IMG/VR virus record: IMGVR_UViG_3300038829_000049
Span: 1-46,165 of that record
Reading direction: 5' to 3' (one strand)
DNA length: 46,165 nt
Origin: a virus
This document shows positions 22,619 to 25,261 of the stretch, piece by piece. The translations under genes and the position numbers were made by a program. Within the stretch, counting starts at the first letter, position 1. Each line of letters starts with the position of its first letter. The notes beneath the pieces were generated by a model. It worked only from the letters and a program-made list of their open reading frames with translations, had not been told where the DNA came from and ran no database searches.

Positions 22619-22834
22619 ATGGACCACGATTTAGCAAATCAGCGCATGCGCGGCAAGCCCGCAACACACAAGCGCAAAAAACCGATGGGGATCATATTCG
22701 GCGGCCAGCGGATCAGAAGTGCCACGTGGGACGACGTGATCGGCATGGCGCGCAACGGCTTTGCCGTGATCCGTGACGGCACCGATATCCGCCTGTGCTG
22801 GTCAGAAGCATTCGAGACGGAGGCCATGCAATGA
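22619..22834 (+). CDS. Hypothetical protein
   Basis: 71-aa ORF. Its TGA overlaps the next ATG (ATGA). The start is uncertain; internal ATGs exist. Confidence 0.45.
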   Translation: MDHDLANQRMRGKPATHKRKKPMGIIFGGQRIRSATWDDVIGMARNGFAVIRDGTDIRLCWSEAFETEAMQ

Positions 22835-23169
22835 CCAAGGCTGACCACATCCGCCAGCTGTACGACGGCACCCGCACCACGGTTGAGATTGCTGCTCTTG
22901 TCGGCTGCCTGCCTGAGTACGTCCGTGTAGTCGCCCGGCAGCGTGTCATCGGCGGCATGAGCAAAACCGATCTGGTCTATACCGAGCGGCTGCGTAAGGC
23001 AATGACCAAGGCTGACCACATCCGCCAGCTGTACGACGGCACCCGCACCACGGTTGAGATTGCTGCTCTTGTCGGCTGCCTGCCTGAGTACGTCCGTGTA
23101 GTCGCCCGGCAGCGTATCATCGGCGGCATGAGCAAAACCGATCTGGTCTATACCGAGCGGCTGCGTAAG
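22828..23169 (+). repeat. Direct tandem duplication, 2 x 171 bp, one mismatch
   Basis: 22828-22998 and 22999-23169 are identical except gtgtc/gtatc. Confidence 0.9.
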
Positions 23170-23328
23170 TACGGCGACAGAGATGCGGCTCAGAAGGTGT
23201 GGAGATCGGTTTACCGCCGCGCCAGAAAGGCAGGCGCCAGCCGGTACGATGCGGACAAGCTAGCCAAGCGGATGAGTGGGCGAACGTTTGCGGCAACAGC
23301 CCGGGCTAACGAGGCCCGCCATAGCTGA
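22831..23328 (+). CDS. Tandem-duplicated HTH protein
   Basis: Two 57-aa copies of MTKADHIRQLYDGTRTTVEIAALVGCLPEYVRVVARQR[V/I]IGGMSKTDLVYTERLRK are followed by a basic tail. Confidence 0.6.
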   Translation: MTKADHIRQLYDGTRTTVEIAALVGCLPEYVRVVARQRVIGGMSKTDLVYTERLRKAMTKADHIRQLYDGTRTTVEIAALVGCLPEYVRVVARQRIIGGMSKTDLVYTERLRKYGDRDAAQKVWRSVYRRARKAGASRYDADKLAKRMSGRTFAATARANEARHS

Positions 23329-23485
23329 TGATCCAGAAGATATCCCCAGCGATTGCACGCTGTTCGAGCCGGCTCCAGATCAAATCGGCTACTGCGTACG
23401 CTGTGACTGTGAGATTTCGCTGTGTGATGCGCCTGAGGGGCTGTGCGCAGTGTGTGCGGAGCGGGGGGACGGGGAAGTGAGATGA
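23276..23485 (+). CDS. Small zinc-ribbon-like protein (start uncertain)
   Basis: ...YCVRCDCEISLCDAPEGLCAVCAE has two CxxC pairs. Its stop overlaps the next ATG (ATGA). It overlaps the upstream gene by 41-53 nt. A competing 50-aa frame (23328..23480) has slightly higher third-position GC but a junk-like sequence. Confidence 0.4.
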   Translation: MGERLRQQPGLTRPAIADDPEDIPSDCTLFEPAPDQIGYCVRCDCEISLCDAPEGLCAVCAERGDGEVR

Positions 23486-24234
23486 ACGAAACGCTTACAT
23501 GGGCAGACCTCCAAGACTGCGGGAATGCGCAAGCGCAGCTCATCTTGCTGGCCATTGCGCGGTCTGCGGATTGGATATCCGGCGAAGGCTACCCTGATAT
23601 CAAGACTATTGCCAAGCGTGCCAAATGCTCGGAGAGGACCGCTTCAACCTACCTCAAACGGCTGGCTGCCGACGAATTTATTCGACGCATTCCGCGCAAG
23701 CGGGCGGATGGCGGACGAACCAGTGATATGATCATTCTGGTTGGCTATAGCGAATGGTATCACGCAATCTACAAGGGCGGAACCGTATCTGCTCCGAGGT
23801 CGATAAAGCGCTACGACACCCCAATGCAAGATTTGCATGGGGGGGTAGAAAACAGTGTAGACCAGGAGGCTGAAATTGCAGCCCCCCCCATGCAAGTACT
23901 ATTGCATACCCCCCATGCAACTACGTTTGCAGGGCCAAAGAACGTTAAACTAACGTCAGATTCTAACGTCAGCGCGGACGGGCGCGCGAGCGAAGGCGCT
24001 CGCCCTCCCGCGCCGAAGAAGCACCTTCCACAATTCACGCTCACACCAGCGGATAGCTCGTGGGACCATTGGATGACGTGGCTGACCGACCACGATCATC
24101 GAGAGGTCGCGCTTGCGGCTCAAGAGGCCCGGCAATTGGTGACTGTTGCACGGTGGCCGAAACCCGGCACGCCCGTCCCTCGCGTCGACGGCTGGCCACT
24201 GATCGAGAAACGCAAGAGGGGGGATGCAGCATGA
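23482..24234 (+). CDS. Replication initiator candidate (N-terminal winged-helix/HTH, lambda O-like organisation)
   Basis: QLILLAIARSADWISGEGYPDIKTIAKRAKCSERTASTYLKRLAADEFIRR is HTH-like. An iteron-like cluster lies inside the gene's linker region. Confidence 0.6.
   Translation: MNETLTWADLQDCGNAQAQLILLAIARSADWISGEGYPDIKTIAKRAKCSERTASTYLKRLAADEFIRRIPRKRADGGRTSDMIILVGYSEWYHAIYKGGTVSAPRSIKRYDTPMQDLHGGVENSVDQEAEIAAPPMQVLLHTPHATTFAGPKNVKLTSDSNVSADGRASEGARPPAPKKHLPQFTLTPADSSWDHWMTWLTDHDHREVALAAQEARQLVTVARWPKPGTPVPRVDGWPLIEKRKRGDAA
23817..23935. other. Candidate origin of replication: cluster of ATGCAA/TTGCA[T/G] half-sites flanked by C/G tracts
   Basis: ATGCAA occurs at 23824, 23890 and 23915. TTGCAT/TTGCAG occurs at 23833, 23876, 23902 and 23927. 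This gives the palindromes ATGCAAgatTTGCAT and ATGCAAgtactaTTGCAT, with C6-C8 and G7 runs between sites. Confidence 0.45.
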
Positions 24235-25261
24235 CCCTGCGTGTGCTGGATCTCTTTTCCGGCATCGGCGGTTTCTCCCTCGGGCTCGAGCGCACGGGTG
24301 GGTTCGAGACGGTCGCGTTCTGCGAGAATGATCCATACGCTGGAAAGGTGCTGAAGAAATGGTGGCCGGCCGTACCCAATTTCAGCCATGGCATCGTCGG
24401 GCTGAACAGCTTGCTGAGGAGGGTGCGGACTGCATTACCGCGGGTTTCCCGTGTCAGGATATTTCATTCGCTGGCGCAGGCGCCGGACTTGCCGGGGCTC
24501 GTTCGGGACTCGTTTGGGCACTCATGCGAACCATTCGCCTGGTTCGACCCCGAATCGCGTTGCTGGAGAACGTGGCAGCGCTGCTTGGTCGAGGGCTGGG
24601 AGATATTCTCGGGCACATGGCCACGGTCGGGTATGACGCGGAATGGCATTGCATACCGGCGTCCAGCGTTGGTGCCCCTCACCAAAGGGACCGCGTTTGG
24701 ATTATTGCTACCGACGCCGACCGCGAGCCAGTACGGCAGCAACAGGTCGGCGAGCTCTGGTGCGGCGGTGCGCCCGTCGCTCAGCCAGATCGCAAAATGG
24801 CCAACGCCGATGCGTGCGGATGCGAGGGGCAGTTCTGGAGCGAACAGGATCGGGAAGCAGGTGCAGTTGGTCGATGCGGTTCGGATGTGGCCGACACCGA
24901 CAGCGGTGGACGGTCGAAGGGGGACGGGAACTTATCGCCCGCAGGACACCGGCATTCCATTACCGCAGGCAGTGGCGATGGCGGAACGGTTTGCGACTCC
25001 AACGTCTCGGGACTGGCTTTTCCGGAACGCCAGTCCCGAGACGTTGGAGAAGAATTCGCGCCCGCTCTCGGAACAGATTGGTGGGCTACTGAACCCGACG
25101 TGGGTCGAGTGGCTGATGGGGTTCCCTCTCGGGTGGACAGACTGCGCTGTCTCGGAAACGCCGTCGTCCCTCAAATCCCGGAACTCATCGGCCAAGCGAT
25201 CCTCCAAACCTTAGACCAAGAGCAGCGCAAGGCAAGGCAACGGGAGGTGTTCGGGAGATGA
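24231..25261 (+). CDS. DNA (cytosine-5)-methyltransferase with a broken reading frame (a -1 shift is needed near 24385-24405)
   Basis: Motif I LDLFSGIGGFSLGLE and FCENDP are in the frame of ATG 24231. Motif IV GFPCQDIS, ENV, QRDRVWI and motif X LGNAVVPQ are in the frame of ORF 24359..25261. The frame-B stop overlaps the next ATG (ATGA). Confidence 0.8.

Follow-up and report, generated by a model that had tools for sequence, protein, structure and literature searches.

Two overlapping same-strand reading frames appear to encode a two-chain C5-methyltransferase in a phage gene family

Introduction

Can one stretch of phage DNA hold two parts of the same enzyme in two reading frames of the same strand? 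The question arises from the viral record IMGVR_UViG_3300038829_000049 of IMG/VR, whose positions 1–46,165 (46,165 nucleotides [nt] in all, hereafter the window) include a C5-methyltransferase locus with two co-directional frames, here called frame A and frame B, frame A being +1 relative to B. An earlier note, made from the sequence alone, had seen methyltransferase motifs in both frames over the 3′ half of the gene and proposed dual coding, frame-switching between two target-recognition architectures, or two database families related by a frameshift. Every frame-A and frame-B peptide that it quoted is present where the note had placed it, and each pair of motifs comes from one piece of DNA read in frames that differ by one base. 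Based on comparison of this locus with its relatives, we conclude that it probably encodes a C5-methyltransferase made of two polypeptides from two same-strand frames, like M.EcoHK31I.

In the family as a whole, frame B would give the large catalytic domain, with motifs I–VIII, a linker of indifferent sequence, and motif X. Frame A would give the small domain, with its own start, a little-constrained leader, a set of PTPTA repeats, and motif IX, and the two chains would come together like alpha and beta of M.EcoHK31I. In the window, the division would be shifted, with the frame-A chain also bearing motif I and the frame-B chain starting at an internal ATG (motifs IV–VIII and X). A wider claim is that a very large phage and prophage family is 'relay-coded', its enzyme segments alternating between two frames and being rebuilt from two polypeptides, with the window as a subtype split into I, IV–VIII, recognition region plus IX, and X; we consider this claim evenly poised.

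Results

Methyltransferase motifs divided between two frames

The window carries two same-strand open reading frames (ORFs), one base apart, that are open together over 856 nt (24359–25214). The earlier note was right that both frames are open, though its figure of about 500 nt was too short. ORF A′ holds motif I, a leader that is hardly constrained if at all, the PTPTA repeats, and motif IX, and ORF B′ holds motifs IV, VI, and VIII, a neutral linker, and motif X (Table 1). No single polypeptide carries the C5-methyltransferase motifs in the order I–X: motifs I and IX are read in frame A, and motifs IV, VI, VIII, and X in frame B. The upstream break, between motif I (frame A) and motif IV (frame B), had been missed by the earlier note.

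Among the PHROGs families, the ORF A′ product matches phrog_1008 (E = 4e-33) and the ORF B′ product matches phrog_363 (E = 5e-47). Both frames also match the methyltransferase profile PF00145, with residues 16–125 of ORF B′ corresponding to profile positions 56–168 (E = 1e-25) and residues 4–50 of frame A to positions 2–47 (E = 5e-9). When the frames are joined where GIVGLN (frame A) meets AEQLAEEG (frame B), the result is a single unbroken PF00145 match over positions 2–168 (139 bits).

Spread of the layout across the family

A sensitive DNA search of phage genomes returned mainly one conserved stretch, about 55–120 nt near 25080–25204, with 74–89% identity in phages of Mycobacterium, Acinetobacter, and Lacticaseibacillus. 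In these phages, the annotated methyltransferase reads the stretch as EP.vgRVADGv..RvDRlk.lGNAVVPQ and the +1 frame reads it as ..TPT..D....LNP.WvEWLMG[FWY]P.GWT. The annotated ORF of Acinetobacter phage ABMM1 (304 amino acids [aa]) is accompanied by a +1 ORF of 298 aa, both uninterrupted, and the +1 ORFs of Mycobacterium phage Che9d and Lacticaseibacillus phage R23.9 span 198 and 201 aa, respectively.

We retrieved eighty viral loci with degenerate frame-B patterns; together with loci already collected, eighty-six had motif IV. A frame-A ORF with motif IX was found in the +1 frame of 85 of these 86 under a relaxed expression, at G+C contents from 0.42 to 0.68. The strict motif IX expression matched 75 of the 86, and the other eleven have variant motifs. 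Working in the other direction, from bacterial and archaeal genome loci retrieved via frame A, an open −1 ORF with motifs IV, VI, VIII, and X was present in 75 of 78, the remaining three being visibly decayed copies. The A-type ORF is essentially never free-standing. Across the family, the overlap runs to 200–380 codons.

The frame-A C-terminal peptide alone matched 4,711 database proteins, most of them unnamed and without a Pfam domain. Some A-type proteins begin MSWLFSQALV, and on one such contig the adjacent frame is a complete methyltransferase beginning MNELALFAGAGGG. An A-type profile matched 46,644 clusters (50% identity) at E up to 1e-3 and 9,424 at E up to 1e-30. E. coli genomes contributed only four distant prophage homologues.

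In PHROGs, frame B falls in phrog_363 and frame A in phrog_1008, each family named 'DNA methyltransferase' and treated as unrelated to the other; here they are two frames of the same genes. The earlier suggestion of two database families related by frameshift is therefore literally true, but the families are not rivals, being two products of one gene family. In Paenibacillus larvae phages, both overlapping coding sequences are annotated as 'DNA cytosine methyltransferase', and the paper on those phages lists two methyltransferase genes and passes over the overlap without comment. Our literature search for a family-level description of the layout found none.

Several loci stand apart. The genome copies L134, L148, and L164 are broken in other ways, with an A-type N-terminus fused to the frame-B core or with the core truncated, and are probably decaying prophage copies. 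Five gene copies with identical match statistics lie on the Roseovarius chromosome OX638333.1 (L162, L163, L165, L167, L168), and two copies 56 kb apart on one Terricaulis contig (L095, L096) also share identical match statistics; these could be repeated prophage-like elements or assembly duplications. Frame-A relatives occur in archaeal metagenome-assembled genomes (L115 and L138 from Woesearchaeota, L158 from Methanoregula), on contigs that may be archaeal, viral, or contaminant. In Burkholderia phage vB_E354 (L094, 487–1704), the homologue is labelled 'putative metabolic enzyme', by the look of it an annotation error for this family, and the gene after it is another site-specific DNA methyltransferase.

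Both frames are kept open

Synonymous codons were shuffled while keeping the protein and codon usage of one frame, and stops were counted in the other frames. From motif IV to motif IX, the seventy-five loci contain 4 frame-A stops against 241 expected, whereas the control third frame shows no depletion (774 observed, 735 expected). The shortage is present both from motif IV to VIII (4 observed and 83 expected in fifty-eight loci) and from VIII to IX (0 and 79), and it holds at 42–50% G+C. The reverse test, keeping the frame-A protein over the repeat region, gave 0 frame-B stops where 268 were expected, with 393 in the control third frame (370 expected).

In the window, the region is 63% G+C, and shuffles of it that preserve the frame-B protein contain a mean of 2.7 frame-A stops, with 2.3% of them stop-free. 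Taken alone, its open frame A is only weakly improbable, and the window by itself does not exclude chance. The family-wide counts (4 against 241, with the control at 774 against 735) do.

Selection passes from one frame to the other

We estimated omega by frame and segment in OLGenie style from pooled pairs (Table 2). Over the repeats, the estimate was made first from 13 pairs on an alignment built from frame A, which is biased towards A, and then from 101 pairs. Because alignments built on one frame bias omega, nucleotides were also aligned without reference to frame. In these frame-blind alignments, frame-B position 3 is the most variable from motif IV to VIII (0.468, vs 0.165 and 0.267 at the other positions), and from motif VIII to IX the most variable is frame-A position 3 (0.375 vs 0.186 and 0.184). 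Over the frame-A leader segment, frame-B third positions have high entropy.

Table 2. Omega estimates by segment in the two frames and, where given, the control frame
Segment	Frame B	Frame A	Control frame
Motif I region	0.20	0.99	
Motifs IV–VIII	0.20–0.24	0.71	1.4
Between motifs VIII and IX (repeats)	0.95–1.14	0.18–0.33	equal to frame B
Motif IX patch	0.77–0.89 (not significant)	0.27–0.29	
After patch	0.21	0.87	

Purifying selection passes from frame B (motifs I–VIII) to frame A (repeats and motif IX) and back to frame B (motif X), and each frame is merely held open where the other is constrained. Of the three explanations in the earlier note, dual coding agrees with this pattern, both frames being kept open and under selection across the family. 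Frame-switching between two recognition architectures is not supported. The stretch that reads VADTDSGG is neutral in frame B (omega 0.95–1.14) and so is only a shadow of the frame-A WPTPTA repeats; likewise, the SETPSSLKS tail is weakly constrained in frame A (0.87) and so is a shadow of frame-B motif X.

A doubly constrained patch around motif IX

The suppression of frame-B synonymous change that the earlier note looked to as a sign of dual coding is found, across seventy-five loci, in the patch around frame-A motif IX. Four-fold sites of frame B there are invariant in all 75 (Arg CGA/AGA, Val GTG, Ala GCT, Gly GGG), which keeps E-W-L-M-G in frame A. Conversely, the frame-A Val and Thr codons end in nothing but A or C, and Arg is thereby retained in frame B. 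Sites in the patch that are free in both frames take all four bases, which argues for a constraint at the protein level rather than one of RNA structure or a DNA site.

The two frame-B elements of this region differ in standing. The EPxVGRVA part covaries with the frame-A motif in divergent loci and is therefore largely a shadow of frame A, while R.DRLK.LGNAVVP belongs to frame B in its own right. In Paenibacillus phage Bloom (L093, ORFs 696–1751 and 898–1602) and in L026, the frame-B EP....RV.R(I/L)K.LGNAV sits 3′ of the DNA that overlaps frame-A motif IX, which means that the frame-B element exists independently of the overlap.

For comparison with a canonical enzyme, chimeras of B (motifs I–VIII), A (repeats and motif IX), and B (motif X) were built into a profile. 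It aligns as a single domain to residues 13–319 of M.HhaI (E = 5e-40), whereas a profile of frame B alone ends at residue 179, with motif X then appearing as a sub-threshold fragment. Frame-A NPTWVEWLMGFPLGWTD aligns with motif IX of M.HhaI; in the chimera profile, LNPtWvEWLmGfP (NPtWvEWLmGfPlgWtd) pairs with M.HhaI KLHPRECARVMGYP, also motif IX, and the window's own LNPTWVEWLMGFPLGWTD with M.HhaI KLHPRECARVMGYPDSY. LGNAVVPQ aligns with FGNSVVINV, motif X. By these alignments, the identification of the frame-A element as motif IX is good but not proven. The PTPTA repeats would be the recognition domain, an assignment made from their position and conservation only. Searches of the C-terminal half of each frame against Pfam gave no match in either frame, and the frame-A product had no match among the sequences of solved structures at E up to 10.

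When database proteins were searched with the chimera profile, 115 of the best 120 matches were pure frame-B proteins, which reach full 'coverage' through alignments that bridge the linker. In-frame B-to-A fusions among these 120 are P0123, P0127, and P0158; a further match, P0122, has motifs IX and X in one frame, and single-frame relatives are rare (1 of the best 120). The locus of P0122 (L092, 242–1330) has motif IX (LNPDWVEWLMGFPIGWTE) in the same frame as motifs I–VIII and motif X; its +1 ORF (558–1181) contains PTPTARD repeats only and ends just before motif IX. This variant is known from a single short contig, where an assembly indel is possible.

Independent starts for the two frames

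Thirty-six listed loci have an A ORF that opens 215 nt before motif IV, and all of them read (A/G/T)TGAATGAG. The Asn codon is always AAT, which creates the frame-A ATG 4 nt after the frame-B start. In thirty-one tested loci of this subtype, frame A has 0 stops between motifs I and IV against 42 expected; in the other forty-eight loci, it is not depleted over the same interval (114 against 138). In the Che9d-like subtype, TAT or CAT joins the GA from the VPxYDD motif of frame B to make the first frame-A ATG. The sites at which the start codons of frame A are fixed are synonymous ones in frame B. Low-G+C loci also have AGGAG 7–10 nt before an internal frame-A ATG, and from these patterns frame A seems to be initiated on its own.

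Motif I on the frame-A chain

The window's layout, with motif I fused to an A-type body, is shared by the proteins P0021, P0035, P0039, and P0092, and its architecture is also seen in loci L009, L010, L012, L095, and L106. In all, at least nine more sequences show this arrangement, their sources being viromes and assemblies of Terricaulis and Planctomycetaceae. This repetition indicates that the frame break is a conserved architecture and not a sequencing error. The window-type proteins have 47–58% identity to the window over the frame-A C-terminal half and 59–68% over the whole frame-A product. In the window-type loci, the third codon position of frame A is the most variable in motif I, and in every segment most variation falls at third positions of the frame that is correct there.

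On the contigs of the window-type proteins, the frame-B ORF begins MVAG or MVAD. Its ATG in the window is made of the last base of a Lys codon (AAA) and the TG of a Trp codon (TGG) in frame A. The codon before TGG ends in A in five of five window-type loci (AAA, CAA, AAA, CGA, CAA), which places a frame-B ATG 81–84 nt before motif IV, and AGG lies about 10 nt 5′ of this ATG in all four window-type loci examined for it. Across the motif I/IV junction (24331–24412), there is no slippery X_XXY_YYZ heptamer and no homopolymer run; window-type loci share the sequence GCTGAACAGCTTGCTG at this junction, which is not slippery. The window is probably an interleaved variant of the M.EcoHK31I layout, in which motifs alternate between the two products.

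Table 1. Features of the locus and their coordinates in the window
Feature	Position	Strand	Frame	Remarks
ORF A′, proposed beta-like chain	24231–25214	+	A	327 aa; ATG 24231, stop 25212–25214
ORF B′, proposed alpha-like chain	24359–25261	+	B	300 aa; ATG 24359, stop 25259–25261
Motif I, LDLFSGIGG	24246–24272	+	A	FxGxG; S-adenosylmethionine (AdoMet) binding
Start context of ORF B′	24341–24361	+		AAGG 10 nt 5′ of ATG 24359
Junction, GIVGLN to AEQLAEEG	24390–24424	+	A to B	canonical sequence changes frame
Leader over frame-B motifs IV–VIII	24408–24704	+	A	open; at most weakly constrained
Catalytic core	24443–24706	+	B	motifs IV, VI, VIII
Motif IV, GFPCQDIS	24443–24466	+	B	PCQ, catalytic Cys
Motif VI, LLENVAAL	24560–24583	+	B	ENV
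Motif VIII, APHQRDRVWII	24674–24706	+	B	QxRxR
Region of four (W/L/A)PTP/TPT repeats	24705–25088	+	A	proposed target-recognition or small-domain part
Neutral linker	24707–25078	+	B	same DNA as frame-A repeats
LLPTPTAS	24705–24728	+	A	
KWPTPMRAD	24795–24821	+	A	
MWPTPTAVD	24885–24911	+	A	
VADTDSGG	24887–24910	+	B	
FATPTSRDW	24990–25016	+	A	
Element WWATEPDVGRVADGVPSRVDRLRC	25079–25150	+	B	overlaps motif IX; doubly constrained patch
Motif IX, LNPTWVEWLMGFPLGWTD	25089–25142	+	A	
Motif X, LGNAVVPQ	25151–25174	+	B	GNxVxP
SETPSSLKS	25152–25178	+	A	

Gene neighbourhood in the window

The locus lies in the early region of a temperate phage, with a replication initiator 5′ and an antiterminator 3′. The stop of the replication-initiator gene overlaps the frame-A ATG (ATGA, 24231–24234), and GAGGGGGG lies 7–14 nt 5′ of that ATG. 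At the other end, the ORF B′ stop overlaps the ATG of the next gene (ATGA, 25258–25261). Each of the two ORFs is thus coupled to a different neighbour. The earlier note had correctly seen the downstream overlap but took it to favour expression of the B end; our data point to expression of both.

Two repeats lie upstream. The first, at 22828–23169 inside ORF 22795–23328, consists of two tandem copies (99% match) of a 171-bp unit and duplicates a 57-aa module, MTKADHIRQLYDGTRTTVEIAALVGCLPEYVRVVARQR.IGGMSKTDLVYTERLRK. It could be a recent duplication or an assembly artefact. The second, at 23875–23932, has about 2.3 copies of a 25-nt unit (CCCCCCATGCAACTACG...) within the replication-initiator gene (23443–24234, a match to phrog_270), and these copies look like origin iterons lying within an O-like gene.

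Discussion

Comparison with known systems

To our knowledge, the two-frame layout has been proven so far for one E. coli enzyme only, M.EcoHK31I; M.EaeI, its isoschizomer, shares its layout. M.EcoHK31I is the two-polypeptide enzyme of Lee et al. 1995, as described in PMC2836561 and PMC3404938. Motif IX is on its beta chain, whose coding sequence lies wholly in another frame of the gene for alpha. Activity requires both chains, although beta can largely do without its N-terminal part (PMC2836561). A 2012 paper lists M.EcoHK31I and M.AquI as exceptions among otherwise monomeric enzymes (PMC3404938).

The locus described here is like M.EcoHK31I in having a second same-strand ORF in an alternative frame of the methyltransferase gene (856 nt of overlap in the window), in the motif IX carried by the alternative-frame chain, and in a large chain that holds the catalytic motifs and motif X. 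The dispensable N-terminus of beta also fits the weakly constrained frame-A leader. There are differences. The recognition domain of M.EcoHK31I is assigned to alpha, whereas here nothing between motifs VIII and IX is conserved but the PTPTA repeats, which lie in frame A, and the frame-A ORF is 200–380 codons long. In the window, the frame-A chain is the one with motif I, and the ORFs are staggered so that neither lies wholly inside the other. The large chain here does not combine motifs I–VIII, a recognition domain, and motif X, as that of M.EcoHK31I does.

Karreman and de Waard reportedly found in 1990 that the genes of M.AquI are consecutive. Like the putative pair here, M.AquI is a natural heterodimeric C5-methyltransferase split within the variable region (PMC3404938). 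Its small subunit holds motifs IX and X, whereas here motif X stays on the large frame-B chain, and the overlap here spans nearly the whole gene.

A smaller case of nested genes is that of phage lambda, where Rz1, about 60 codons long, is embedded in the +1 frame of Rz and the two products form a complex. The present genes would resemble Rz/Rz1 in having a +1-frame embedded gene whose product is complexed with that of the enclosing gene. The function of Rz/Rz1 is unrelated, and here the overlap is 200–300 codons long and canonical domains of one enzyme are divided between the frames.

In engineered systems, fragments of M.HhaI, M.SssI, M.BspRI, and M.BsuRI split in the variable region assemble into active enzyme; these splits, unlike the present one, were engineered and the genes did not overlap (PMC3404938, PMC3439449). 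No split that separates motif I from motifs IV–VIII is cited for engineered complementation in those passages (PMC3404938, PMC3439449).

Alternative explanations

The main rival is that programmed frameshifting makes one canonical polypeptide, the ribosome shifting by +1 after motif VIII, by −1 after motif IX, and here also by −1 between motifs I and IV. The selection pattern fits a single chain ordered I–VIII, recognition domain, IX, X; the chimera aligns end to end with M.HhaI; and a few in-frame fusions are known (P0123, P0127, P0158, and P0122). However, such a mechanism would need two or three shifts per protein across hosts of many phyla. The window junction offers no heptamer or homopolymer, and the junctions after VIII and IX, inspected by eye only, are the other places where shifts would fall. 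Frameshifting would also leave unexplained why frame A is open over motifs IV–VIII (4 stops against 83) and frame B over the repeats (0 against 268), and why frame A owns a conserved ATG, with a Shine-Dalgarno sequence in some loci. The best matches to the chimera profile, moreover, are overwhelmingly pure frame-B products (115 of 120). We therefore regard frameshifting to a single chain as unlikely.

A little less probable still is that frame A, though translated, is an overprinted gene in its own right whose function has nothing to do with methylation, such as regulation or counter-defence. The element of frame A that is best conserved lines up with motif IX and sits before motif X, as is canonical, and frame A almost never occurs outside a C5-methyltransferase gene. 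The frame-B product alone would be left without motif IX and any conserved recognition region, and in the M.EcoHK31I precedent just such a chain is needed for methylation. Three observations do suit an overprinted gene: purifying selection acts on frame A, the frame has start codons of its own, and it has neither a Pfam family nor a sequence match among solved structures.

A decayed, frameshifted pseudogene in the window, with frame A looking meaningful because the family keeps that frame open, would place motif I and motifs IV–VIII in different frames, and a few genome copies are indeed clearly frameshifted or truncated (L134, L148, and L164). We nevertheless give this explanation a low probability, below that of an overprinted gene. 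The same arrangement occurs in at least nine further sequences, the catalytic motifs are all intact, third-position variation dominates in the correct frame in each segment, the internal frame-B ATG is kept in five of five loci, and the start of ORF A′ and the stop of ORF B′ overlap the stop and start of the flanking genes.

That frame A is never translated, reflecting instead a DNA or RNA constraint or an effect of frame-B composition, with the A-type families as gene-calling artefacts, is very improbable: most A-type entries are unnamed metagenome calls and the open frame is only weakly improbable in the G+C-rich window alone, but the wobble phase moves to frame-A position 3 in the repeats (omega 0.18–0.33 in A), the stop depletion holds at 42–50% G+C, the place of opening depends on the position of the ATG, and patch sites free in both frames vary freely.

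A two-chain methyltransferase remains the reading that we prefer, and several points weigh against it. The case for translation, chain assembly, and methyltransferase activity is comparative throughout. The chimera gains only about 5 bits against M.HhaI, and the PF00145 match of the chimeras does not extend into motifs IX and X. AlphaFold2 gave the frame-A product, with a 60-sequence alignment, a mean predicted local distance difference test (pLDDT) score of 57 and a predicted template modelling (pTM) score of 0.28, with short segments alone confident; the chimera, folded as a single sequence with no alignment, had a pLDDT of 37. Since the loci are not phylogenetically independent, pooled counts overstate significance. 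Frame-B omega in the patch (0.77–0.89) is not significantly below 1, and the frame-B constraint there amounts to a few sites. The likeness to M.EcoHK31I is one of layout, as judged from published descriptions. Finally, we know of no experimental precedent for motif I on a different chain from motifs IV–VIII.

Implications

If the two-chain reading is true, a very large family of phages and prophages would have the layout of M.EcoHK31I as its norm and not as a rare exception, and these genes would be among the longest (200–300 codons) and most widespread same-strand overlapping gene pairs of prokaryotic viruses. Gene callers give only one ORF at such loci, so that tens of thousands of 'hypothetical proteins' and one PHROG family would be the missing recognition subunit. 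Conversely, the annotated frame-B 'methyltransferases' would lack motif IX and the recognition region, and prediction of specificity from them alone would fail. With only about 20 codons constrained in both frames, the family would offer a clean case in nature in which to study the maintenance of long overlapping genes, and the variant in the window would be a test of how much splitting a methyltransferase with a Rossmann fold can bear.

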